A DNA stretch of 64,000 nucleotides from Sphyrna mokarran. Its lineage: Eukaryota. The stretch covers positions 43,400,001 through 43,464,000 of the forward strand of contig JAGIQG010000013.1 of the NCBI GenBank assembly GCA_024679065.1, written 5' to 3'. The position numbers and the translations under genes were made by a program. Under the pieces are notes generated by a model. The model was not told where the DNA came from, did no database searches, and saw nothing but the letters and a program-made list of their open reading frames with translations. Positions 5,162 through 62,797 of the stretch are shown here, piece after piece (within the stretch, counting starts at the first letter, position 1; each line of letters starts with the position of its first letter).

Positions 5162-6050
5162 TTCCCTGCTTTTATCATTCCATAATAACTAATTCATAAA
5201 TTGATTTACAGGGGACCAGTGGAAGAACGACAAATAATTACATAGGCATTTGAGAAAAAAAATTAAATGATCAATAAGATAATGATCCCCAGGTGTATTA
5301 TCATTCCTCCCCAGTCACCAAATATGCTACCACATGTCCACCAATCAGGGAGGTTGTGATAGTTGATTTTGTGCCTTCGGTCCTGATCTTATCTGTTATC
5401 TCTCTGATGTGATCAGCCAGGCTTATTATATTTTCAGAGGAATCAGGGATATAAGTACAACATTCTGTTCCCACTAGAGTGCATATATCTCCTGATTTGG
5501 CCAGTAAATAATCTAAGGCTATTCGGTTTTGGAGAGCTACTGTTTGGATGGCAATTACTTCTGCTGACACCTCAGATATAGCCATGCTCACACTTTCCAG
5601 ATCACCTATTGTGTCATTGGCTATTTTCTCAAGAGCTGACACCATATTCATCAGCTCTCGGGCAGCTTTGGCTGTACAGTAGACAGGAAAGGTTATCATC
5701 CAAAACCGCTGACTCTCTGTGATGCCCATTTTGATCTCAAAAGGTGTATCTTGCGGTGGAGGCATAGGGAGTCATAATAGCGGATATAGGGGACCTCTTA
5801 CTCTAGATAGCAAGATCCTGCCCAATCCCAAGGGAACCATGGATAGGCATTGTTTTCGCAGACAAAATAGGTACCATTATATGCAATCATTATGCTCAGT
5901 AGTTCGGGATCAGTCCTGAGTTGGGCAATACTGTTAGAACTCTCAATTTTCAGCATGTCCCTTTGGATGCCCTTAGTAACATTGAAGGTCCGGTTACAGC
6001 TACTATGGTCTACCAGCTTTGTCCCATTTCTAATGATACATATGGATTCA
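5162..6050 (-). pseudogene. env: Gamma-type retroviral env remnant (SU C-terminus + TM subunit)
   Basis: Immunosuppressive domain LQNRIALDYLLA, CX6CC motif (CTLVGTECC), heptad region; upstream frame GTYFVCENNAYPWFPWDWAGSCYL; mutated furin site RSKW; one stop and frameshifts. Confidence 0.9.
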
Positions 6051-6321
6051 TGCTATTGATTCATGACAACAAAATGGGGTGAGAAGTCCAACCTATTAAA
6101 GATAGGTTTAAAGTGATGAGCAAAAGTTGTCCAGTTACACCCAAGCAGTTTTCAGCTGCCTCCCAACAGCATTATGGATTTACCTATGCTACATGTGCTA
6201 TCTCTCTTACAGAACTATGGATTTACCTACACTATGTGATCTGCAGCATTTCATGAAGGCAGTTTGGCACTACCTTCTTGAGGGAAGTTATGGGCTATAA
6301 GTGCTGGCCTTGCCAGTATTA

Positions 6322-6728
6322 TAATGTAGAGATGCCGGTGTTGGACTGGGGTAGTAAGAACTCAGTAAGAATCTAGCAACACTAATTTTAAATCCAACCG
6401 ATTTATTTCATAGTAAATTTGCGAGCTTTCGACTTTCTGTCTTTGTCAGGCAAATGCTGTGCTGTCTGGAGAAAATACACAATTCTCTAACCAATGCTCA
6501 GGATTCCCTTCACACACATTGTTAGCCACTTTAACACTTGAATAGCAGGTTAGATGTAAGGATTCGCATTCTAATCAGCAATCTGTGACTGTCTATGTTG
6601 ATATGTGTGCTATTGCAGACCAGAACACTGCATTTGCCTGACGAAGACAGAAAGTCAAAAGCTCGCAAATTTACTATCAAATAAATCGGTTGGATTTAAA
6701 ATCGGTGTTGCTAGATTCTTACTGAGTT
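6322..6728 (+). mobile_element. Penelope-like element (PLE) 3' end with inverted 5' pLTR (fold-back), hammerhead-bearing
   Basis: 6458-6728 is the reverse complement of the PLE 3' UTR at 57569-57836; ~100-bp inverted arms; 13-bp TSD cttgccagt(a/g)tta at 6309-6321 and 6729-6741. Confidence 0.85.
6632..6670 (+). ncRNA. Minimal type I hammerhead ribozyme motif (GAAA mutated to AAAA); mirror copy at 6417-6455 on minus strand (CUGACGA mutated to CUGACAA)
   Basis: AUUUGC-CUGACGA-A-GAC(AGAAA)GUC-AAAA-GC-UC-GCAAAU: 6-bp stem I, stem II, palindromic AGCU stem III; the two arms carry different CpG mutations so their consensus core is intact. Confidence 0.75.
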
Positions 6729-7542
6729 CTTGCCAGTGTTACCCAAATCTTGTGAAAATAATTTAAAAATGAAGGGTATGGCAAGGCAGCATCCAGTCTG
6801 ATTCAGAGGGTTGCCAGGGAGTGGGATGGAGCCAGTGAACATCAAGTTTATGATGGGGACTGAAGATGCCGGCTTCAGACTTTCGAATATTTGATTTGAG
6901 AAGAGTTCTGCTCATTCAGGATACACATCCTGATAATTTAGAGAAAGTGGAATGGCCAAGATGGTGGTGAAAATCCAGAACAGGATGCTTAACAGATATT
7001 GTGCTCTAGCATACTGTCAGCAAGAAACAGCAACTGGAAGTTGTGTATTTAGGATATTTGCAGGGTCTTGCCTGCTACTTCATCAAAAACAAAATCAAGT
7101 TAGTTAAACACAAGATGTTTTTAATAAATCTGTGCTGATATTACTTAATTAATATTCATTCATCTGCATGATCTTTGATTTTGTCCGAACTATGGCAAGA
7201 ACTGCAACCTGATTGGAAGGAATGAAATGTGAAGTTCAGGAAAGATGGGGTTGAATTTGTGCAGCCACTACATGTTCAAGGACTTCCGAGAGGCACGGAA
7301 GATTGGAGATGGGTGATAGTTTGTCAGGACCGAGTGGTAAAGTGGTGTTTTTTCTTGACAGCAGAGTATAACAACTTGGATTTATTTGAACTAAGATTTA
7401 AGGGATTCATTTCTTTGCAATAACTCCCCAATTGTAAATCTTACCAGGTTCCAGAGATTTAACCATATGGCAAGAAAGAACACTTTCACTGGAGAATTCA
7501 GAAAATTTATTAAAAGGTAACAAGTTAGAAAGATTAAAAAAA

Positions 7543-15046: not shown

Positions 15047-16167
15047 TGTTTACAAAAAGACAACAGAACCATTTTATTAATTTAAAATTCAATAACAATG
15101 TTTTATTAAGCATAGTGTTAAAGTAAAATGATATATATTAATGCAAGAAATTTGGAACAGTTGAGATAGTTACTCAACAAAATGTCAACTTTAGCAAGTG
15201 CTAAAGTTAAATATTAAGCCAAGTGTCAGTCAAATATCAAAGTTTTGTAACATATTTTAACATTATTTTAACATTATAACATTATTTTAGTTAATAAATA
15301 TTTGATATTAAAGTCTACAAAATTTTACAAATGATTTATTGAAACATCAGAACTTAGCATTAAAATTTGAAATTCTGTGAATATCTCATTGAGACATCAA
15401 AACATTACGTTTAAATAGGAGATAATTATAACTGAATAACGTAATTGAAATAATCAAAGAAAAAAAATCTACTATTGATTAAAACAGATATCACCTATCT
15501 TACAACAAGTGGGTCGCTAGCAGCACGGAGCAATTTAAAAAGGAGCCTGCATAAGAGGAGGGCTGTCTGAAGTAGAGGTAGCAGTGCTGGAGGGAGAGGA
15601 GACGGACCCTAATTCCCCCTGCATCGTCCCTGGACCCTTCCCCGTTCCTTGTGACATAACCTGCTGTAACCCTGATGGCAATGCCTCTTGCCCAGTAGCA
15701 ACTGCAAACAAGTTACGGAATGATGTTGTGTAGATTTAAATAGTATCATCAGATTTAAAAAGAAAACACAATCTATATCCACTTATAAATATTAAATTAT
15801 AATCATCAATCATAAAAAGTAGAACTACAAATGACACTTTAAAATAACCAAATATGATCGTATTGTCTGTTTAAAATAAAAAAAGAAGTTTGAAAAACCT
15901 TCAAAGTGCCTTTCTAACAGCTGTCAGTTATGTTGTTTCCTCTATGTTGCTGCTGTTTAAATCTCTGTCCTCAATGAACATTCCCTTTGTTTCCCTGTCA
16001 TAAATTATGGCGATTCTGAAACTGCACTTCGCTTGGACCTGTGAGACTGTCCTGATGGAGACCCAAGGCTGCTGGTGGAAATGAAAATTTCTTTGCGTTC
16101 TTTGAATGCAGTTTAAGTCTGTACTTGTTTTTTCTTAGTTTCGGCTGGCCATGGCTTCCTGCCGATA

Positions 16168-16351
16168 TGATGTGGAGATGCCGGCATTGGGCTGGGGTGA
16201 ACACAATGAGAAGCCTGACAACATCAGGTTTAAGTCAAACCAATTTATTTGATAGTAAACTCACACGCGTTTACTGTCAAATATCTTTATAATATCTTTA
16301 TAATAGTGTCGATATCTTTAGATATCTAATATCTTTAGATATCGACACTAT
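16168..16351. mobile_element. Truncated PLE pLTR with short fold-back and palindromic filler
   Basis: Begins with the family tail tgatgtggagatgccggcattgggctgggg; IR tatttgatagtaaac/gtttactgtcaaata; then IR atagtgtcgatatct/agatatcgacactat. Confidence 0.65.
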
Positions 16352-19980: not shown

Positions 19981-20481
19981 TAAAAGTAATGCTTGTCAGT
20001 AGTTAATTGCGAAAATAACTGTTTGTAACCAGTTAAAATGGGTAACGACTGTCTATAAAAGTGCAAGTCTAGTTACCTATTTATGTGCTGAAGTTGCTAA
20101 ATTAGCATTGTTGACAATTATGTCAGGAGCAGGTTCACTACTCTGGACTGTAGAAGTCAGTATCAAGTCACATCAGCTACAAATAAATAATCAGCGGCAG
20201 TACTTTCAAAAATACAGATCAGGCTGGAAAATGCAGCGTTGATACCCGAGAGTTATTTTCCTTCCCCTGAAGACATTTAAATCTGTCCTTTGCAGCCCTT
20301 TTGTGAAAAGTTAGGGTACACCTTCATCTTCTTGCCTCATTCCCTTTCAAAGAGGCGTTATGTTTCTGAAAGGTCAGAGATACAGAAACAAGTGCTTTGT
20401 TTGCACAGCTTCTCCATGCCTTTGTTTGGAATGAATGGAAGCTCCATCCCAAACAAAGGCTCCTTGGATATCTGATGTAAG

Positions 20482-20709
20482 CCATGATGTAGAGATGCCG
20501 GCATTGGACTGGGATAAACTCAGTAAGAGGTCTGACAACACCAATTTTAAATCCAACCGATTTATTTGATAGTAATCTGCGAGCTTTCGGCCTTTGTAGC
20601 CTTCGTCAGGCGAAGGTGTATTCGCCTGACGAAGGCTACAAAGGCCAAAAGCTTGCAAGTTTTCTATCAAATAAATCAGTTGGATTTAAAATTGGTGTTG
20701 TCAGACCTC
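20482..20709. mobile_element. PLE-derived hairpin element with two head-to-head hammerhead motifs
   Basis: ~89-bp inverted arms (20526-20614 / 20621-20710) around a 6-nt loop; perfect 13-bp TSD tatctgatgtaag at 20469-20481 and 20710-20722. Confidence 0.85.
20578..20614 (-). ncRNA. Minimal hammerhead ribozyme motif with intact catalytic core
   Basis: Minus strand UUCGC-CUGACGA-A-GGC(UACAAAG)GCC-GAAA-GC-UC-GCAG; stem I is weak; mirror copy 20621-20657 has GAAA>AAAA. Confidence 0.75.
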
Positions 20710-22226
20710 TATCTGATGTAAGGCATATTTAAATCCTGATCTAATTTGTAGGCTTTCCATCACCTTTTCATCAGAGTTACAGCAGCAGTACGTAAAAAGC
20801 ATTAAGGATTTATACCCCCTTATTCATCAAGGGATTTTTAAAAAAGATCATTTTAGCAAAACTGACATAATTACATTTTTATGTGGTTTTGTTTACATTT
20901 ATTGTGGTACCCTCCCCATTTTTTCATAGACGTCCTCATTCTCATGGTTTCCATTTTTATGGGATTGTTCACTCTTCATTCTTTTACCTGTTGAGATAAA
21001 TATATATATAACTATGGTGAACTTCTCTTCAAAAAAATGGGAGGAAAGTCATATTTACATAAACCTGCACAATGAACTTGGATTATAAGATGTGATGTGA
21101 CTTTTTCACTCGGCAAGCTTCAGAATATTGATGTATGACCATATTGCTTCAGCACAAAGCAATAAGATTTAAATCACATCTATTTTACCCTATTATTATT
21201 TACTTATATTCTTCAAAACCATCTATACACTCAGATTAAAGGGTAAACAGGAGCCCTCTAGAAACACTGCTTTCGATTTAATAGATGGTTCTTGTAGAGC
21301 ATCCTTCATAGACACTCCCAGTTACTGAAACAAAAAGGATGACCAATTAAAAACCAATTTAAAATGGCATTTCCTAATGAAGTCATTGATGGCATAGTTA
21401 TGATTATTATGAACTCACCATGTGGAAAATCAGAGGCAAACTCTAGAAAATATAGAATGGGAGGCCTGACAAACAGACACACGTTTTATCCTGGTCTGCT
21501 GAAGAGATAAGTGAGTAATACTATGGGACAACCTTTTGCTATGCTGGTAGACTTTATGCAGAGGCAAACTAACTTCTATAAGAAGTACAGAAGCGAATCA
21601 TGTAAGAAAGCAACTGCTACTGCTCAAGTAGACCCAAATTCATGACCTGGATTCAAATGATAAATGCTCTGTAGATATTATCAGTCTACCTTCCTGTTGT
21701 AGAGAACTAGAATGACTTTATTGGACCATATTGATCAGAAGGAATGAAGACAGACTCCCTTTTTATTCCCTATTTTGACTGGAGTGTTGCCACCAAATAA
21801 AAGCATGTATTTTTAACTGCAAGAAAAACAAATGATCATAAACTAGACTGAAAGCACCTTGACAGTGATACCATTAGATATCTCTCTGCAAGATCCATTC
21901 TACCTCTCCTGCCCATCAAAGCGTAGTATGTTTAAACTGAGGCCAATTCCTGTTGTTCTATATATTACCACTTTCACTTTGATATGAAAAAGTTTCTAAC
22001 ATGCATCAAAATGAAAATCGTGGTATAATTTGGAAGTCAGTTCCTGATCTGACTCCTGAAACCCAATGAGGTTTGGGGGTGTGAGAAACAGTCTGCAAGG
22101 AATTCTCACACTAGTTAAAGTTCACAGTGTTGCGTGTCTGTGACTTATTGCAATGTCACATTTGAAAAACATGCAGACATTAATTAAACTAAGTATATGA
22201 TATTTTTCAGTGCACTTCTAACACTG

Positions 22227-26689: not shown

Positions 26690-27275
26690 TGGGGTGGCAT
26701 ATTGGCACAGTGGTTAACACTGCTGCCTCACAGTGCCAGGGGTCTGGTTCAATCCAGCCTTGGCTGACTGTGTGGAGTTTACATGTTCTTCCTGTGTCTG
26801 TGTAGGTTTTCTCCGGGTGCTCTTGTTTTTTCCCCACACTGTAAGAAGTCTTACAATACCAGGTTAAAGTCCAACAGGTTTATTTGATAGGAAACACCAC
26901 TAGCTTCCGGAATGCTGTTCCTTTGTCAGGTGAGTGGAGAGTTCCGAAAGTTAGTGGTGTTTACTATCAAATAAATCTGTTGGATTTTAACCTGATGTTG
27001 TGAGACTTCTTACTATGTTTACCCCAGTCCAACGCCAGCATCTCCACACATTCTTCCCACACTCCTAAGAAGTGCAGCTTAGGTGGACTGACCATGCTAA
27101 ATTGCCCCCTAGTGTCCAAAGATACGTAGGTTAGGGGAATAGTGCTGGTAAATATGTAGGGTTATGTGGATAGGGCAGGGGAGAGAGCCTGGGTAAGTAT
27201 GCACTGACATTCTTGGAGAGTCGGTACAGACTTGATGGGATAAATAGCTTCCTTCTGCACTATCTGGATTCTATG
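26690..27275 (+). mobile_element. V-SINE/HE1-like SINE interrupted by a PLE hairpin
   Basis: ggcacagtggttaacactgctgcctcacag head, V-domain core, CR1-like tail. Confidence 0.85.
26841..27050. mobile_element. PLE-derived hairpin element (second subfamily) with degenerate hammerhead
   Basis: Inverted arms gtaagaagtcttacaa.../...ttgtgagacttcttac; tail ccccagtccaacgccagcatctccac; 13-bp TSD with 2 mismatches (26828-26840 / 27051-27063). Confidence 0.8.
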
Positions 27276-30293: not shown

Positions 30294-32960
30294 ACAAAGA
30301 ACAAAGAACAACACAGCATAGGAAACAGAACACACGGCTCTACAAGTCCGCGCCATCCATTTTAGCACTCAGTGAGTGCCTTATTCAAGTCTTTTGTCGA
30401 CCAATGACACTTTTGTCTACCTCTAGTGGACTCCACAACAAAGGAGTGCAAATTTAGGGAATTATATGTGCGTTAGATTAAGAGAGATCCAATTTAGGAA
30501 CAAATTATTGACACAATCAGCCTAAAAAGCACATTTTTGGGATGTGGGAGGAAACCGGACCACCTGGAGAAAATCCACGCAAGTATGGGGAGAACATACA
30601 AACTCCCACAGATGTTGACCCAAGCCAGAGATCCGACCCGAGTCCCTGTAACTGCATAGCAAACAGTGATAGTCATTGAACTGTCATGTTGCTTGTCAAT
30701 TGGTCTAGTTTAAGCATACACTAATGGACATAAAGCACTAGGCAACTCTTGAAGCAACATCCAAGAGCATCTCTCGCCCAACCCACCACGTGTATGCCCT
30801 TTGTTGACCAACAATGCGGACCAAATCGCCTGTGGGTGTAAAAAGGAGACATTAATAAACATACAACATTCTTTCATATCCCTCCATCTCCAGTCTGCTC
30901 GTGTGCTTATCTAGATAAGTCTTAAACAGCCCTAGCATGTCTATTTCAACCATTCAACTCGGTAGTGCATTCCAGGCCCCCACAACCCTCTGTGAAGAAA
31001 CATCCCTTTAACATCTGAGTTATACCTCGCCCCTCTCACATTGAGTCTGTGATCCCTCGTGATTTTTGCATCTAAGCTAGGAAAAAGCTTCCCACTGTTC
31101 GCTCTATCTATACTCTTCATAATCTTACATACCTCTATTAGGTCTCCCCTCATTTTCCATCTTTCCAGGGAGAACAATCCCAATTTGCCCAATCTCTCTC
31201 ATAGCTAAGACTCTCCATACCAGGCAGCTTCCTGGTAAATCTCCTCTGCACTCTCTCCAAGGCCTCCATGTCCTTCCAATAGTGCGGTGACCAAAACTGG
31301 ATGCAGTACTCTAAATGTGGTCGAACCAATGCTTTATACAACTGAACATTAGACACCAACTTTTATACTCTACACTCCTTCCAATAAAGGCAAGCATACC
31401 ATATGCCTTCTTCACCACCTTCCCCACCTGTACTGTCACCTTCAAAAACTTGTGAACTTGCACACCTAGGTCCCCTCTGTGTTTTATACTCTTAATGATG
31501 CTACTATTTATTGTATAGCCTCTCCTACATTAATTCTTCCAAAATGCATCACCTTGCATTTATCTGGAGTAAATTCCATGTGCCATTTCACGGCCCAATT
31601 TACCAGCCTATCTATATCCTGCTGTATCGTCTGACACTGTTCGTTACTATCAGCAAATCCAGCCATCTTCGTGTCATCTGCAAACTTGCTGATCACAAGA
31701 GTTACTCTCTCTTCTAAATCATTTATGTATATTACAAACAGTAGAGGTCCCTGTATGGAGCCCTGTGGAATACCACTAGTCACAGACCTCCAGTTAGAAA
31801 ACGACCCTTCCACTGCTACCCTCTGTCTCCTGTGGCCAAGCCTGTTCTCAACCCATCTCGCCATCTGTCTTTGTATCCCATGAGCCTTAACCTTTTTCAC
31901 CAACCTGCCATGAGGGAGTTTGTCAAATTCCTTACCGAAATCCACATAGACGACATCCATGGCTCTTCCTTCATCCACCATTTTTGTTACCTTCTCAAAA
32001 AATTCCACCAGATTTGTAAGGCATGACCTCCCTCTTACAGAAGCATGTTGCCTGTCACTAATGAGATTGTTCTGTTCTAAATGCGCATATATCCTATCTC
32101 TAAAAATCCTCACCAACAATTTTCCTACCATTAATGTGAAGCTCATCTGCCTATAATTACCCAGGTTATCCCTGCTACCCTTTTTAAACAACAGTACCAC
32201 ATTCGCTACTCTTCAATCCTCTGGGACATCACCTGTGTCCAAAGAAGAGACAAAGATTTCTGTCAGAGTCCCAGCAGTTTCATCTCTTGTCTCCCTGAGC
32301 AGTGTAGGATAGATGCCATCAGGCCCCGGAGATTTGTTAGTTTTAACGTTCCCTAAAAAACCTAACACTTCCTCCCTTGTAATGGAGATTTTCTCCAACG
32401 GGTCAACAACTCCCTCTAAGACGCTCCCAGACAACAAGTCCCTCTCCTTTGTGAATACTGACACAAAGTATTCATTCAAGATCTCCCCTATTCCCTTGGG
32501 CTCTAAACATAATTCCCCTCCTTTGTCCCTGAGGTCTGATTTTTTTCCTCAACAACTCTTTTGCTCCTAACATATGAATAAAATGCCTTTGGATTATCCT
32601 TAATCTTATCTGCCAAGACCATTTCATGACCTCTTTTCACCCTTCTAACTCCCCATTTGAATTCTCACCTATTCTCTCTGTATTCTTCCAGAGCTCTCTC
32701 TGTTCTCAGTTGCCTGGACCTAACATACGTCTTTCTTTTCTTTCTGATCATGTCCTCAATATCCCTAGTTAGCCACTCTCTAATCTTGCCTTTCCTATTC
32801 TTCCTCTTTACAGGCACATGGCTGTCCTGCAGCCTTATCAGATGTCCCTTAAAAGACTCCCATGTACCATATGTGGACTTACCCCTGAACATCCTCTCCC
32901 AATCAATGGCCACAATTCCTTCCTAATCCAGTTATAGCTAGCCTTTCCCCAATTTAGCAC
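30294..32960 (-). mobile_element. CR1 LINE, ~2.7 kb, frameshifted ORF2 (RT), SINE-like domain in 3' UTR
   Basis: ORFs 32665-32913, 32213-32479 (KSPGPDGIYP), 31508-32200 ([13 protein letters not shown]), 31150-31359, 30941-31192. Confidence 0.95.
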
Positions 32961-35290: not shown

Positions 35291-35730
35291 TGAGATGGAG
35301 GTGCCCGAGTTGGACGGGGCGTGGGCACAGTAAGCAGTCTCACAACAACACGTCAAAGTCTCACAGGTTTATTTGAAATCACTAGCTTTTCGAGCGCTGC
35401 CCCTTCATCAGGTGGATGGAGGTTGGTTCACAAGCATGGAATACATGACACAATTGCAAGATAATTACATATTAGAATGTGAAGAACCGGCGGAAGGCAA
35501 GTCTTTACAGGTAACGTGTGATTATCCTTCTCTCCATGCACACTGTACTTGTAAAGGCTTGATTACCTGTAAAGATTCATATTGCAACTATTCTTCACAT
35601 TCTAATATGTAATTATTTTGCGGTTGTGTCTGTCTATATACGCTGTGAACTAACCTCCAGTCACCCGATGAAGAAGCGGCAAAAGCTCGTGATTCCAAAC
35701 AAACCTGTTGGATTTTAACTTTGTAAGAAG
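35291..35730. mobile_element. PLE-derived long fold-back (~200-bp arms) in intron 2 of the IgV gene, hammerhead-bearing
   Basis: Family tail gatggaggtgcccgagttggacgggg; minus-strand CAC-CUGAUGA-A-GGGGCAGCGCUC-GAAAA-GC-UA-GUG at ~35379-35414; degenerate mirror at ~35660-35695. Confidence 0.75.
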
Positions 35731-36278
35731 TCCCACAGCACCAAGTCTAGACTGTAAGAAATGTGAGGTAAGACAGATTTTTAGATGTCATTTAGTTTCG
35801 TCGACGAGCTTTTTAGGGAAATATCCCAGGATGGAAGAGGTTGTGAGTGGGAGAATTACAGCTCAGCTTCTCCCCACTGGAAGTATTTATTTTTAAAACT
35901 GGATTGTAATGAATTAAGGAACGAGCTCTAGAGGTAAAGTCCATGATCTTATCTGGTCTATCCAGTAATCTAAGTTCTGTGAAAGATGGGTATGATGTCA
36001 AAGATGCATATGCAACCTATGAGGCTCAATCAACTGCGTTTCAAAAATGTTAAAAACATGTTGCTCCAAAGATTTAATTGGAGGGGAATAAGGTAACACT
36101 GCCCTTAGTAATATTGAATCTGCATATCTACAATCTTCAGCTACTGACAAGTTACAATAATGTTCTCCCACTAGGTTTATTTTATGAAAATGAATACAAA
36201 TTCGTTTCAAGGACTGCAATGATTAATTAGTGCTTTAATTTCATCTGCATTTAACACCGAATAGGTAAGCGTACTCAC

Positions 36279-50446: not shown

Positions 50447-51820
50447 AATAGAAACACAGAAAGTATAAGCAGAAGTAGGCCATTCTGTCCTTAGACCGTG
50501 CTCTGCCATTCATTTTGATCATGACTAATCATCAACTTCAATATCCTGACCCTGTCTTTCCCCATATCACTTGATCCTTTTAGCCCCAAGAGCTATATCT
50601 AATTTTATCTTGAAATCATGCAGTGTTTTGGCTTTAACTACTTTCTGCGGTAATGAATACTACAGATTCACCACTCTCTGGATGAAGAGGTTGCTTCTTA
50701 CTTCAGACATTAAAGGTTTATTTCTTATCCTCAAAACATGACCCCAAGCTTTGGACTCCCCCGCAATTGTGAACACTCTTTCTGAACCTACCCTGTTTAA
50801 TCCTGTTAGAATTTTATAAAATTCTATGAGGTCTCCATTCACTTTCTGAATTCCAAAGGATATAATCCTAAATGACTTAGTCTGTCCTCATATGACAGAT
50901 CTGCCATCCCAGGAATCAGCTTGATGAACCTTCGCTGTACTCCCTCTATAGTGAGAATATTCTTTCTCAGATAAGGACACCAAAACTGCACACAATACTC
51001 CAGATGTGGCCTCACCAATGTCTATACAATTGCAGTAAAACATCTCTACTCCTATACTCAAATCCTCTTGCTATGAAGGCCAAAATTCCATTTACCTTTA
51101 TTACCTGCTGTACCTGTGTGCTTACTTTCAACAAATGATGCACAAGGCCACCAAGGTCTTGCTGAGTATTCATCTCTCCCAATTTACACCAATTCAAATA
51201 ATAAACTGCCTTCCTATTATTGCCACCAAAACTGATAATCTCAGATTTATCCATATTTTACTGTATCTGCCATGCATCTGCCAACTCACTTAACCTGTCC
51301 AAATCACGCTGAAGCATCTCTGCTTCACAGCTCACCTTCCCATCCAAATCGTTAATACATAATGTGAATAGTTGGAGTCCTAGCACAGATCCCTGCAGTA
51401 CCTCATTAGTCACTGTTCACCAACTGGAAAAAGACTCATTTATGCCAACTTTTTGTTTTCTATCTGCTAAGCAACTTTCTATCCATTTCAAGACACTACC
51501 CACAATCTGAAGTGCTTTAACTTTACATAATAGTCTGCTATGTGTGTCTTTATTGAAAGCCTTTTTAAAGTCTAAATAAAGCATATCCACTGGTTTTCCT
51601 TTATCAGCTCTACTAGTTGCCTCCTCAAAGAATTCGAATAGATTTGTCAAACATGATTTCCTCTTTGTAAATCCATGCTGACTTTGTCTGATTACATAAT
51701 TGTTTTCCAAATGCTGATTTATGAAATCCTTGATAATGGACTCTAGCAACTTCCCCAATACTGAGGTTAGGCTCACTGGTCTATACCTTCTTGTTTTCTC
51801 TCTACCTCTCTTTTTGAAAT
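50447..51820 (-). mobile_element. CR1 LINE fragment
   Basis: SLTSVLGKLLESII...QHGFTKRKSCLTNL...YLDFKKAF; LLQLYR; DLIEFYKILTG. Confidence 0.9.
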
Positions 51821-51849
51821 GACTTGTATCGACTGGCCAGTGGTTGCTA

Positions 51850-52940
51850 CTCTGAGGCTTTAGAGCATGAGTTAATTCATAAGCACATCAGAATCAGCAT
51901 GCTTAAGGCTGTCAGGCCTTTTGCAAACAAAACAGGATTTAACATTAGAGAAGGCTGAACAGTTTGTATGGCAGGCAGAGCTGTTACAGCTGTCCTAAGA
52001 TGTACTTCGGCACTGAGACTTGGTAGGAGTCCACCCATTAAACCCAAAGTTGGGAGCCCTATATGCTGAAAAGCCCACAAGAAGTTCACTAAAACCACTG
52101 AAGGGGCAGGCAAAACTCTTTCTCCTGTGTTAAAATATTCCAGATGCAGTGCCCAAAAAATAGCATCACTGTGAAGACTGCCCAGGAGGGGAAGCTGAAT
52201 GCTTTCTCAGTAGCAAGTCTGGACATGCTGAATAATTCTAAGATTTAAAGCATAATGCAAGCAAGTAAGCTGGAAAAAGCTACTTGCTGTTTTGAGGTCC
52301 AGCAAATTGAAAAAATCAGCATTCCAATCTGACAATTTCCTCAGAGAAATTAAAGATTCTGATCAGCAGTTCTGATCTGTAAAGCCTCAAGTGCAAGGAT
52401 ACAAATCAGAATGTAAAGTGGACACGGGCAGAGGTCATTGTCTTTTCAAAACAGTTCACTGGCTTCAGGCCTGGCTTAAAAAAGTAGAAATCCAACTATC
52501 TAACATAAAACTACAGGGATCAGGTGACAGAAATCTCAAATTGAAGGGTCAGTTCACTAAAAGCTTAGGCATAAGGATAAAAAAAATCAATAAAACTCTT
52601 TATATCTTTCAGAACCAGTCAATTTCTCTTCTCGATAGGTCAGTGTGTTTAAGACTCGGTCAATGAGCTAACAGCAGAGACCAGCGGAGCAATATTCAGG
52701 CATGAATTTCCCAGGACCGGGAAACCTCAAAAGGAATTAAGTCAAAGAAATTGAAATTGACTCATTATGAATTGAGCCAGTCTTTATTGCAGAAACACCA
52801 ACTACTGGACCACAGGAGATGGCAGGCCTCTCAGTTCTTTCTGAAGACAGGCTAGATGAGATAAAGTAGGATACACTAAACAATGAAGTTACTGCAGAAA
52901 TAAATGATCTGTTAGAAGTGCTAGATTCCTTTGATTCCAT
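51850..52940 (+). mobile_element. Gypsy (Mag-like) LTR retrotransposon gag-protease remnant with internal deletion
   Basis: RLSGLLQTKQDLTLEKAEQFVWQAE (gag); H..DCPGGEAECF..KSGH (zinc knuckle); KVDTG/AEVIV (protease, frameshifted); LKLKGQFT..LYIFQNQSISLL; LSEDRLDEIK*DT (RNaseH-integrase linker). Confidence 0.75.
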
Positions 52941-57400: not shown

Positions 57401-57568
57401 TCAAGTATACTCCTGCAATATATGGGATATTGTTCAATCATCTCCACTGGGTATGCAAATAAACTGACGGCGTGACTGGCAGCCAGTTCAGCTCTGACTG
57501 AGATGATGACGGACAGCAAAGACAATTGAGCAGCGCAATATTGGGGAGGAATGGAAATTGGCATTATT

Positions 57569-58658
57569 CAGTAAGAATTTAGCAACACCAATTATTAATC
57601 CAACCGATTTATTTGATAGTAAAATAGCGAGCTTTCAACACTCCCGTGTCTTCATCAGGCAAGTGCAGTGTTCTGGTCTGCAATAGCACACATCAGCACA
57701 GACAGTCAGAGATTGCTGATTAGAATGCGAATCCTTACATCCAACCTGCTATTTAAGTGTTAAAGTGGCTAACAATGTGTGTGAAGGGGATCCTGAGCAT
57801 TGTTAGAGAATTGTGTATTTTCTCCAGACAGCACAGTAAGTGAGGTTTTTTGCTAACCCAGGCAAGTTACGGGGGTTACAGATAGTGTGTCATGAAGCCA
57901 AGATCCCTGTTAAGACCGTCCTCATGTGTGCGGAGCTTGGCTATCAGTCTCTGCTCAGCGACTCTGCGCTGTCGTGTATCACGAAAGCCCCCTTGAAGAA
58001 CATTTACCCGCAGGTCGGAGGCCGAATGCCCATGACTGCTGAAGTGTTCACCCACAGGAAGGGAACTGTTTTGCCTGGTGATTGTTGAGCGATGCTCATT
58101 CATCCGCTGTCGTAGTGTTTGCATGGTCTCCCCAATATACCATGCTTCGGGACATCCTTTCTTGCAACGTATTAGGTAGACAACGTTGGCCGAGTTGCAA
58201 GAGTATGTACCGTGCACCTGGTGAATGGTATCCTCACGTTTGATGATGTCGTCCATGTCTATGATCCGGCATGTCTTGCAGAGGTTGCTGTGGCAGGGTT
58301 GTGTGGTATTGTGGTCACTGTTCTCCTGAAGGTTGGGTAGTTTGCTGCGAACAATGATCTGTTTGAGGTTGTGCGGTTGTCTGAAAGCAAGAAGTGGGGG
58401 GGTGGGGATGGCCCTAGCGAGATGTTCATCGTCATCAATGACATGTTGAAGACTCCGGAGAAGATGTCGTAGCTTCTCCGCTCCGGGGAAGTACTGGACA
58501 ACAAAGGGTACTCTGTCCACCTTGTCCCGTGTTCGTCTTCTGAGGAGATCAGTGCGGTTTATCGTTGTGGCACGTTGGAACTGTCGATCGATGAGTCGAG
58601 CGCCATATCCTGTTCTCACGAGTGCATCCTTCAGTGTCTGGAGGTGTCTGTCACGATC
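57569..58658 (-). mobile_element. Penelope-like retroelement, 5'-truncated: RT-thumb/linker + GIY-YIG endonuclease + 3' pLTR with hammerhead
   Basis: Uninterrupted frame to 57876: PCHSNLCKTC linker, NVVYLIRC..C...YIGET..LRQRMNEH, VGEHF...H, RRVAEQRLI, GLNRD; perfect 13-bp TSD aattggcattatt at 57556-57568 and 58659-58671. Confidence 0.95.
57625..57663 (-). ncRNA. Minimal hammerhead ribozyme motif in the PLE 3' pLTR
   Basis: UUGC-CUGAUGA-A-GACAC(GGGA)GUGUU-GAAA-GC-UC-GCUA: intact core, 5-bp stem II with GNRA loop. Confidence 0.8.
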
Positions 58659-59827
58659 AATTGGCATTATTGACAGTGTAATGGCAGCAAATGACCACCA
58701 GATGGTGGAAGAATCGTACTCCTTCTGTATTCGTCCTAATAACAGTTCACAAGATAGTTACAAATCAGGAGAATATTAGGCTCTGATTATTCATCAACAC
58801 CTCTTGTTATCAGCATGACTGCCAGTGTGGTAGAAGATGAACTAGGATGGACTGTGGTCTTTTTTCAATGCAGTCACTTCTATATTCCTTCAAAGGAATA
58901 TCAGAAAAATGGAATATTTTGTTTGATTCCTTGATCACAAAGATCAAGATCATATTCCCTTACCAGTGACTACACCCTTTCCTTGGCAGCTCATGCTAGT
59001 TGAAGCAGGCTGTGCAAAAGCTCAGATTCCCTTTTGACCAAAGCAAATTTTCAAACATCATTATCTTATCCACAAAAGCGGTGACTTCTACCTTTCCAAC
59101 ATCTCTTGTTGCTGCCCCACTGCATCCTCAGTGCTGCTGAAATGCTGATCAATATTAAAATGAAGTTTAGGTTCAGTTTCACCACTGTCGCAGGCTCTTA
59201 AATCTCTACACACTCCAATTTATCTAAACACCTGCTGCCCCTCAGTAAATCCCACTTGTAAATTACACCTCCAATGACTCCATTGAACCACTCTGGCCCC
59301 CTGTCCCCAGTCCTCATTCTTGTTTTCAGATTTTGGAAAACCCCATTGCTCTCCAGTCATATGTTTCTGGACCTTGAGTGTCCCTCCTGTCCTACACTCC
59401 GTCCCAGCTGGTGTGCTGCACTTGTGGAACTCACTTCCTCTGTAAATCTCGCCTGTAAATCAAGCTCTTTTAGCTTTTTCATCTCTCAAAAAGTTTGGTA
59501 TCCACTCCTGTCGTCTTTTGTGTACTGTCAGGGAACAATTTTCTATATTAAAGGTTCTTTGTGGTTGGAATCAACCCACCCCTCTGGTGGGTTCTGAAGC
59601 TGTGTGGAGGAGTGGGGGGGGGTCAGGGGGTGTGGTTGGTAAGGTTGGTGAAATTGTATGGGTGGGATTCTGCCCAAGATCCCACTGGCCTTGACCCATA
59701 CCTAATTTCACAGTGGAACAGATAGTGCCTGAGATGAGAAGCCCACCCCATGTCTCTATTTCAACCCTTAATTTGTTTGATACCTTGTATCATTGTCTAT
59801 CAAGCAGCCTCAACCAATAGTGTCTTT

Positions 59828-62593
59828 AGAACATAGAACATAGAACAATACAGCACAGAACAGGCCCTTCGGCCTTCGATGTTGTGCCGACCAAAATAAA
59901 AAGCAATGCCCTCCTAACTAAACCATTCCCTTCTCATCCATATACTTATCAACTAACCTCTTAAACGCCACCAAACTTGGCGCATCTACAACAGCTGCAG
60001 GCAGGGCATTCCACTCCCTAATCACTCTTTGAGTAAAGAACTACCTCTGATATCCGTCCTATAACTCATACCCCTTAATTTAAAGCTGTGTCCCCTCGTG
60101 CTAGCTTTCTCCATCCTAGGAAAAAGGCTATCACTGTCCACCCTATCTAAACCTCTAATCATCTTATATGCTTCAATAAGATCCCCCCTTAGCTGCCTCC
60201 TTTCTAACGAAAACAACCTCAAATCCTTCAACCTCTCTTCATAGGACCTGCCCTCCATACCAGGCAACATCCTGGTAAACCTCCTCTGTACCCTCTCCAA
60301 TGCCTCCACATCTTTCTTATAATGTGGGGACCAGAACTGCACACAATACTCCAAGTGCGGCCGCACTAGAGTTTTGTACAGTTGCAACATGATGCTGCGG
60401 CTCCTAAATTCAATCCCCTACCAATAAAAGCTAAGACTCCATATGCCTTCTTAACAACTTTATCCACTTGACTGCCTCCTTTCAGGGATCTATTGACACA
60501 TACACCAAGATCCTTCTGTTCCTCAACACTATTAAGAGCCCTACCATTAGCCCTATACTCTACACATTTATTGTTCCTGCCAAAGTGCATTACTCACACT
60601 TTTCCACATTAAACTCCATTTGCCACCTCTCGGCCCAGCTCTGCAACTTGTCCAAGTCACTCTGTAAACTAAACACCCCTCTTCACTATCTACCACACCA
60701 CCAACTTTAGTATCATCTGCAAATTTACTGATCCATCCCTCAATACCCTCATCCAGATCATTTATAAAAATTACAAACAGCAGGGGCCCCAAAACAGACC
60801 CCTGAGGCATACCACTTGTCACCGAACTCACGATGAATATCTCCCATCAACCACCACCCTCTGTCTTCTATCTGCCAGCCAATTCCTAATCCAATTAGCT
60901 AAATCACCCTCTATTCCACGCATCTGCATTTTCTGTAGAAGTCTTCCATGGGCCACCTTATCAAACGCCTTACTAAAGTCCATATATACTACATCAACCG
61001 CCTTACCCCCATCCACCTCTTTGGTCACTTTCTCAAAAAAATCAATGAGGTTAGTAAGGCATGACCTACCCTTCACGAAACCATGCTGACTATCCCCAAT
61101 CAATTCATTTCTCTCTAAATAACTATAAATCCTATCCCTAATAATTCTCTCCAATACCGTGCCCACCACAGAAGTAAGACTCACTGGCCTATAATTCCCA
61201 GGAAGGTCTCTCTTCCCCTTCTTAAACAATGGGACCACATTCGCCATCCTCCAGTCCTCCTGAACCACACCCGTAACCAACGAGGACCTGAAGATCAGAG
61301 CCAGAGGCTCTGCAATCTCCTCTCTTGCCTCCCAGAGAATCCTAGGGTAAATCCCGTCCGGACCAGGGGACTTATCCAACTTCAAACCCTCGAGAATTTC
61401 TAGCACATCCTCCCTATCTACTACAATACTTCCCAATTTGCAACCTGTACCTCAGTGTTCTCCATAGCTACATTTCCAGCACTCTGCGTGAATACCGAAG
61501 AGAAATATTTATTCAGTGCCTCACCAATCTCTTCAGGCTCCACGCACAACTTCCCACTGCTGTCTATGACTGGCCCTAATCTTGCCCTAACCAATCTTCT
61601 ATTCTTAACATATCGAAAGAAAGCTGTAGGATTCTCCTTAATCCTATCAGCCAACATCTTCTCGTGTCCCCTCTTAGCTCTCCTCAATTCACTTTTTACC
61701 TCCTCCCTGGCTAATCTATAGCTATCCATTGCACTATCTGAGCCTTCAAGCCTCATCCTGACATAAGCCTCCTTTTTCTTCTTAACCAGCAAATCAACTT
61801 TTTTCGTACACCAAGGCTCTCTTACTAGTCCATTTCCTCCCTGCCTGACAGGGACATACTTATCAAGGACTCGCAGCAGCTGCTCCTTGAATAAGCACCA
61901 CATTCCAGATGTTCCCAGTCCCTGTAGTGCCCTAGTCCAATCTATGCACCCTAATTCTCTCCTGATGGCCTCATAATTACCCTTCCCCCAGCTATAACTA
62001 CTGCCCCCAGCTTCATGCCTATCCCTGTCCATCAATAAGGTGAACGTAACCGAATTGTGGTCACTATCACCAAAATGTTCACTAACTTCCAAGCCTAACA
62101 CCTGGTCTGGCTCATTGCCCAGCACCAAATCCAATGTAGCCTCACCTCTAGTTGGCCTATCTACATACTGAGTCAAAAAACCTTCCTGCCCACTCTGTAC
62201 GAAAACTGACCCCTCTAACGAGCTAGAGCTATAGCTATTCCAATCAATATTAGCAAAGTTAAAGTCCCCCATCACAATTACCCTACTACTTTCACTCCTA
62301 ATCAGAATTGACTTCGCAATCCTTTCCTCAACCTCTCTAGAACTATGAGGAGGTCTGTAAAAGACTCCCAACAGGGTGACCTCTCCTCTCCTGTTTCTAA
62401 TCTCAGCCCATACTACCTCAACAGACAAGTCCTCATCAAACTTCTTTTCAATCACCGTGATACAGTCTTTGACCAGTAACGCCACTCCTCCCCCCCTTCT
62501 ACCCCCTTCTCTACTCCGACTAAAGCATTTGTACCCCGGAACCTGCAACATCCATTCCTGTCCCTGCTCTACCCAAGTCTCTGAAATGGCCAC
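59828..62593 (-). mobile_element. Relatively young CR1 LINE, 5'-truncated in the endonuclease, ORF2 with several frameshifts
   Basis: EN (VAISETW, GVFYRPP, MGDFN, SDHN), RT ([29 protein letters not shown]), (AGAACAT)n tail; 4-bp cttt at both ends. Confidence 0.97.
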
Positions 62594-62797
62594 TGCAGGC
62601 ACTTTCTTATCCACTGCAGGCAAATAAGTAGAAATATTGGTTCCTATCATTTACCATAGTTAAGTGATATATCTCAGACTTTCTAATTTTCCTTATTGTC
62701 TTTCTCTTTCCCATGTCTCTGGTTTCCTGTATTTCTTGATCTGTCTATCTTTCAGTCCCGCTGTTTTGCTCTCCTTCCAACTCCCATTCTACCTTTG

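Follow-up and report, generated by a model that had tools for sequence, protein, structure and literature searches.

A head-to-head insertion in Sphyrna mokarran, almost certainly a dead stub of a Penelope-like element with hammerhead motifs in both arms

Inverted insertions of Penelope-like elements (PLEs), with an inverted pLTR, a tail at one side only and a target-site duplication (TSD), are already known (PMC3846280, PMC8557442, PMC8969392), and their formation has been called unresolved (PMC8557442). The closest described cases are the Pen2a and Pen3a insertions of Adineta vaga (PMC3846280; scheme in PMC8557442, Fig. 2), in which the inverted pLTR lies head to head, 5′ truncation is heavy, a tail of 30–40 nt at one end only reaches the start of the ORF, and the TSD is ~8–14 bp long. 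The hammerheads of metazoan PLEs have a CUGANGA core, an extra base between positions 9 and 10.1, a G10.1–C11.1 pair, palindromic positions 15.2–16.2, no loop 3 and a short stem I, and pairs of such motifs on opposite strands, 100–700 bp apart, have been reported (Cervera and de la Peña 2014, PMC4209133). They are described as cleaving weakly, as dimers (PMC4209133), or as needing the element's own protein for cleavage (PMC11167929). In the Anolis Poseidon element PAc (Frangieh et al. 2024, PMC11167929), with a hammerhead upstream, both target strands are cut and extended in vitro, and two start positions on the template, one tail length apart, flank the tail and mark the insertion ends. This is a Poseidon and not a Neptune element; the paper is not known to treat inverted insertions in its text, whilst products of that kind may already be on view in its supplements (Figs S1 and S2). 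Animal non-LTR retrozymes (bioRxiv 10.64898/2026.07.22.740005) are non-coding, pLTR-derived tandem direct repeats with one type I hammerhead per unit, all on one strand.

We have analysed a stretch of 64,000 nt from Sphyrna mokarran (contig JAGIQG010000013.1, 43,400,001–43,464,000; hereafter the window, numbered from its first letter), in which two perfect 13-bp copies of TATCTGATGTAAG (20469–20481 and 20710–20722, plus strand) enclose a 228-bp insert at 20482–20709. Related copies are also flanked by duplications (10–16 bp, mode 12, in 138 copies). The sense of the element is that of the minus strand, and its 3′ end is an ATG (20483–20485, minus strand) that corresponds to the parent ORF's start codon at a tandem pLTR–ORF junction. 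This ATG terminates a 44-nt PLE tail (20483–20526, minus strand), which is present on one arm only and has no partner in the hairpin. Next to it lies the left arm, which is the pLTR's 3′ part in the sense of the element (20527–20614, minus strand), collinear with longer copies that reach GIY-YIG and RT coding sequence. The head-to-head junction is a 6-nt loop, GGTGTA (20615–20620, no strand assigned), private to this locus, and beyond it is the right arm, an inverted, tail-less piece of the pLTR (20621–20709, plus strand). The two arms, 88 and 89 nt long, differ at 7 of 89 positions, none of them compensated. Comparison of coordinates and arms thus bears out the dimensions given in the initial annotation (228-bp insert, 13-bp TSD, inverted arms of ~89 bp, 6-nt loop). 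Its further description of the insert as reduced to ribozyme plus anti-ribozyme does not stand, as each hammerhead occupies only ~40 of the 89 nt of its arm and the 44 nt of the tail are unpaired. Two features of the flanks were also seen: a 16-bp inverted repeat with an 11-nt spacer (20418–20460) lies immediately to the left of the duplication, and at 20469–20492 the target site shares TGATGTA with the end of the tail and matches the sequence beyond the tail-less end at 5 of 7 bases.

The insert therefore shares with the Adineta insertions the inverted pLTR, the truncation and the one-sided tail reaching the ORF start (PMC3846280, PMC8557442). It differs in that the truncation of either arm lies within the pLTR, leaving the stub without an ORF, and in that the layout could be counted over 166 copies. 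Compared with PAc, in which the end of the tail lies 111–118 nt inside the ORF (PMC11167929), the tail here ends at the ATG and the linker of the parent protein is of Neptune type.

The parent was identified by way of longer relatives. Searching the insert against the 2.77-Gb genome gave 3086 candidates, of which the 40 scored cover nearly its full length (87–100%), and with the left arm alone we found copies in which the same tail is followed by the pLTR and then by GIY-YIG and RT sequence. From one of these, L033, a 240-aa RT piece gave 12,313 candidates, with open frames of ~900 aa among the 150 scored. Twelve such ORF loci were examined, and four (L184, L186, L187 and L189) are full-length PLE ORFs with a 5′ pLTR in tandem and a methionine at the same place; the 893-aa ORFs of L184 and L187 start at one and the same position, after the same tail as the ATG of the stub, so that the tail ends at the start codon of these ORFs (20483–20485, minus strand). 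The ORF of L187 contains RVT_1 and GIY-YIG domains and a C-X4-C-X2-C linker, and is 89% identical to the RT piece of L033. Pfam matches to an intact ORF are 5e-10 for RVT_1 and 21.1 bits for GIY-YIG, the latter just below the cut-off of 22.6; the 240-aa RT piece and a 30-aa endonuclease piece had no Pfam match, the full ORF being required. The intact ORFs belong to a sister subfamily whose pLTR is ~80% identical to the arm of the stub, and none of the exact subfamily was recovered among the 12 loci. L189 additionally has a 1.4-kb inverted copy at 99.4% identity, which indicates that the sister subfamily is young.

The linker reads PCHSNLCKTC or VVYLIRCKKGCPEAWYIG in these ORFs and is also found in L033, which is of the same subfamily as the stub. 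Neptune and Nematis are recognised by a CX2-5CxxC linker (PMC8557442), and Neptune and Poseidon are reported to be the only PLEs found in vertebrates (bioRxiv 10.64898/2026.07.22.740005). Here it precedes a GIY-YIG domain that itself holds two cysteines. The same-tail copies thus have the organisation of an endonuclease-bearing PLE, a pLTR and one ORF with RT and, at its C terminus, GIY-YIG, and the stub that of its inverted, 5′-truncated copies, with a one-sided tail and a TSD of variable length. The PLE origin and the inverted pLTR proposed in the initial annotation are both upheld, the first by the same-tail copies and the 893-aa sister ORFs, the second by the tail-less right arm and its recurrence among the sampled copies. 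We are confident that the insert represents the pLTR end of a Neptune-type PLE, inserted with 5′ truncation and with a tailed arm head to head with a tail-less one, and that the locus is a dead PLE stub is close to certain. This reading draws on the observed parentage, duplication, one-tail rule and private junction and on the arm haplotype shared within loci across the family. By analogy with a related element, which requires ORF sequence 3′ of the priming sites on its template, the stub would also be a deficient template, having no such sequence.

Further remains of mobile elements lie elsewhere in the window. At 57568–58757 (minus strand), a copy of the sister Neptune-type subfamily retains the 3′ coding end (a 293-aa frame, with GIY-YIG at 23.2 bits, above the cut-off of 22.6) and a tail-less pLTR. 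Four more pLTR insertions, of related subfamilies, are found at 6321–6737, 16167–16272, 26841–27048 and 35298–35760; the first and third are clearly inverted pairs, whose loops and stem II variants differ. A 156-aa frame at 5301–5771 (minus strand) matches a retroviral ENV (Pfam TLV_coat, 3e-10) and, on that match, is likely to be a fragment of an endogenous retrovirus. LINE-type RT and endonuclease frames occur at 31508–32212, 51417–51887 and 60828–62650 (minus strand), and from their motifs we take them to be CR1-like.

The layout of the stub is common in this genome. Two patterns of the tail gave 2044 and 326 exact matches, and none in controls; we took the first 90 and the first 77 of these by position, blind to structure, and mapped 166 of the 167 (L132 was dropped and three long arms were set by hand), with a coordinate x counted from the ATG end of the element. 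An adjacent inverted arm is present in 109 of the 166. In 100 of these 109 it ends near the tail boundary (x up to 63; 90 at x = 28–46), and in one (L136, the sole sampled hairpin with tails on both arms) it is tailed. Of the 100, 72 have a TSD of at least 9 bp. The whole hammerhead is found in both arms in 46 sampled copies, and 20 of the 166 are compact double-hammerhead hairpins, with 20 different end pairs; extrapolation to the 2370 exact-tail copies gives an estimated ~300. Arm length varies continuously, from these compact hairpins at the lower extreme to arms of up to 2 kb that include coding sequence. Exact 14-nt flanks located 69 compact head-to-head hairpins, and among the 50 that made up a loop-anchored set (two of which are a local duplicate) exactly one arm is tailed in 49 and two in none. 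The junctions (n = 106) comprise 53 overlaps, 49 inserts and 4 that are blunt.

The initial annotation had suggested a retrozyme- or MITE-like family, that is, a non-autonomous hairpin copied as a unit from a master, and had proposed recurrence of loop breakpoints as the check. In its favour, at least 69 compact hairpins have exact flanks. The loop of this locus, however, has a single match in 2.77 Gb at up to one mismatch, and 100 compact hairpins (the sampled copies, the best matches and 50 of the 69 loop-anchored ones) have 88 different junctions. Nine junction classes do recur, at 2–4 loci each (L016 and L030, for example, have one loop in common), and identical end pairs number 26 against 15.4 in shuffles (p = 0.013), yet all the recurring junctions are overlaps of 1–9 nt, and microhomology would give such a mild excess. 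The haplotypes of the arms point the same way: loci with a common junction differ pairwise at 3.25 of 8 markers compared with 3.66 for random pairs and 0.77 for the two arms of a locus, and although 3 of 16 same-junction pairs differ at no more than one marker, so do 14% of random pairs. The recurring joints thus occur on unrelated haplotypes. Nor does the structure fit either class. Retrozymes have a hammerhead in at least two consecutive direct-repeat units, whereas the arms here are inverted around a private junction and the insert region contains no direct repeats besides the TSD; the copies of a MITE share a single internal structure, with terminal inverted repeats on either side and a TSD of fixed length, in contrast to a unique loop, 88 junctions in 100 hairpins, a 44-nt unpaired end and a TSD of 10–16 bp. 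Copying of the hairpin as a unit is largely refuted by these observations and we regard it as highly improbable.

In LINE-1 twin priming, both target nicks prime on one RNA and the inversion is joined by microhomology. A similar step may account for the stubs, with the difference that the parts of a twin-primed LINE-1 do not overlap, whereas here the second start would lie ~40 nt from the first, so that the arms duplicate each other. With one RNA as template and in a single step, the enzyme of the element would use both nicked target strands as primers for reverse transcription. For this copy the nicks would be staggered by 13 bp; one strand would prime at the ATG end of the tail and the other ~40 nt upstream, both cDNAs would terminate shortly beyond the hammerhead or at an RNA end that they share, and they would be linked by end-joining, through microhomology or with short inserts. 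On balance we favour this origin for the insert, and the in vitro data on the Poseidon element allow it (PMC11167929). Literature searches listed no title or abstract with a two-priming account of PLE inversions, and one may nevertheless be in print.

The same dead stub could instead have acquired its inverted arm by fold-back self-priming of one cDNA, or by self-priming on an antisense template, with the endonuclease cutting the tail-less end at resolution, much as proposed earlier (PMC3846280, Discussion; PMC8557442). The arms of one locus are discordant at only 46 of 754 haplotype markers (6%; 134 loci), compared with 44% in shuffles (minimum 35% in 2000), which supports one template per locus under the two-priming model and follows by construction from fold-back; agreement could also have been raised by arm-to-arm conversion. 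Palindromic joints (TTCG/CGAA in L036, L056 and L058, for instance) also suit fold-back, and arm lengths within 10 nt of each other are in excess (42 of 109 loci; 11.6 expected, maximum 23 in 10,000 shuffles), an excess explained equally well by fold-back or by a shared RNA end. Against it, 45 of 109 loci have a tail-less arm that exceeds the tailed one by more than 10 nt, as opposed to 22 with the reverse (p = 0.007), and in 13 of the 109 the extra reach into the element is above 100 nt, with a maximum of 1602 nt; that the tail-less arm so often reaches further disfavours its origin by simple folding back of the tailed one, and with endonuclease resolution fold-back explains the equal-length class but the longer tail-less arms only if later deletions made them. 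Such deletions, across the centre of the palindrome, could indeed fake unequal arms. Two of the 134 loci, L141 and L147, have arms that differ at four markers, likely reflecting two different RNA templates per insertion, and the two RT start sites bounding the tail have been measured in vitro (PMC11167929). We consider fold-back a possible but doubtful origin. As regards this very copy, its arms are discordant at one of five markers (TC vs CT, x = 95–96), so that one template and two are indistinguishable here, and two are possible.

For the two-priming step, the positions at which the arms end are of interest. Ends are enriched at x = 131–145 (50 of 175 at risk vs 20 of 195 just before, p = 9e-6) and at x = 92–106 (39 of 243 vs 33 of 465, p = 3e-4), both bins having been chosen post hoc and the arms within a locus being non-independent; those of this copy, at x = 132 and 133, fall within the first hotspot. 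An apparent sharp pile-up of BLAST ends at the cleavage site (x = 94–97) is partly an artefact of subfamily variants. By profile the counts do not rise abruptly at the cut site (14 ends at 92–96, 13 at 97–101 and 12 at 102–106), and only a broad excess remains near it. A single transcription start at x = 133 is not supported either, the ends being spread over 131–160, and no spliced upstream exon was found beyond ends at 125–165 in 19 single-arm copies. Tentatively, the stubs may be an in vivo record of PLE insertion in which a protein dimer acts on one RNA, both nicks prime at two fixed sites 40 nt apart to give a single tail in every case, and the hammerhead, folded or self-cut, determines where RT stops, with ends just below and around the cut site (x = 92–106) and just above it (x = 131–160). 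Against the two-priming step, the strict one-tail rule contrasts with PAc, in which the two strands were not seen to differ in start site (PMC11167929). That the stubs together record in some way how the element inserts is likely.

A minimal type I hammerhead with an intact core lies on the minus strand at 20575–20614, with a predicted cut between 20581 and 20580. It reads CUGACGA-A-GGCUACAAAGGCC-GAAA-GCU-C, and every element of the core was located: CUGACGA (20609–20603), the extra A after A9, stem II (20601–20589), GAAA, GCU and C17 at 20581 in an NUH site, together with a palindromic stem III; stem I is marginal, with 4 of 6 pairs. The second motif (plus strand, 20621–20660) is damaged, and G12 is where it departs from a minimal type I hammerhead. 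The initial annotation, which had called such a hammerhead with an intact minus-strand core, was right on both counts; of its statement that each arm carries GAAA-GC-UC, the minus arm conforms, whilst the plus arm reads AAAA-GC-UU, with G12A, a CpG change, at 20647 and with position 17 (20654) occupied by U. The motifs resemble those of other metazoan PLEs in core and stems. They differ from the Schistosoma families in a stem II of 3–4 bp rather than 7–8 bp, and from the reported opposite-strand pairs in lying 17 bp apart rather than 100–700 bp (PMC4209133).

Across 18 natural instances, hand-picked from PLE subfamilies, two-sided changes occur at 7 of the 12 pairs of stems I and II, stem II is paired at 93% and stem I at 78%, and covariation is 0.379 compared with at most 0.154 when the alignment is slid (the sequences are related, so the shuffles do not give p-values). 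The covariation of stem II that had been proposed as a check is thus present, and because both stems covary across subfamilies the motif call stands. Among 192 instances located by way of the pLTR sequence downstream, GAAA is followed by GCT at 15.2–16.1 in 182, and position 17 is A in 86, C in 57, T in 47 and G in 2; with the two-sided stem changes, this conservation indicates that the motif was under structural selection in active elements. A search of the insert against Rfam, taken up to E = 10, returned no hammerhead and detected neither motif. The best match, mir-5856, scored 37 bits against a cut-off of 90 and is a generic hairpin match; other miRNA and snoRNA matches were far under their cut-offs.

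The full hairpin is predicted to occlude the hammerhead. Folding of the 254-nt stretch gives −157.9 kcal/mol (z = −20.7, with none of 200 shuffles equally good) and a near-perfect 88-bp stem on either strand. In the minus-strand transcript, in which the antisense arm is synthesised first, the calculated probability of stem II is ~1e-20, and 49 kcal/mol would be needed to free the core; an isolated 48-mer also prefers a different hairpin. The suggestion that the ribozyme inhibits itself in transcripts of either strand is in keeping with this predicted folding.

With such a long stem, the hairpin might have been kept as a functional RNA, giving rise to dsRNA or to small RNAs by which the PLE family is silenced, or serving as a regulated ribozyme, and small RNAs from Penelope copies are known in other animals (PMC3846280). 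The inserted copies argue against retention: their cores have changed at 67 of 3528 positions (1.9%) and the flanks at 288 of 13966 (2.1%), and G12 has decayed in 80 of 336 cases compared with 77 of 392 for a control CpG. Since the core decays at the flank rate and G12 like the control, there is no selection after insertion. An intact core is kept in 56 of 105 tailed and 27 of 61 tail-less arms, and both cores in only 12 of 43 sampled double-hammerhead loci. At this locus the 7 differences between the arms are without compensation, and a Pfam scan of 71 of the 99 open frames in 8000–34000, a weak test, found none over the cut-off and hence no host exon nearby. A retained functional RNA is very unlikely. 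On the preferred reading of a dead stub, the hammerheads are probably passengers, one of them decayed and the other, from the predicted fold, locked in the hairpin.

The insertion is thus real, and its ribozyme motif real but occluded, and both are of a known kind. The locus itself is ordinary debris, and the compact head-to-head layout is routine in this genome and has an architecture already published. The family is of modest importance, the mechanism of inverted PLE insertions having been called unresolved (PMC8557442). Since the genome contains thousands of copies and intact sister ORFs, both the two-priming model and the part played by the hammerhead in truncation are testable. If the model is true, these stubs would be an in vivo record of an unsolved step in PLE insertion.
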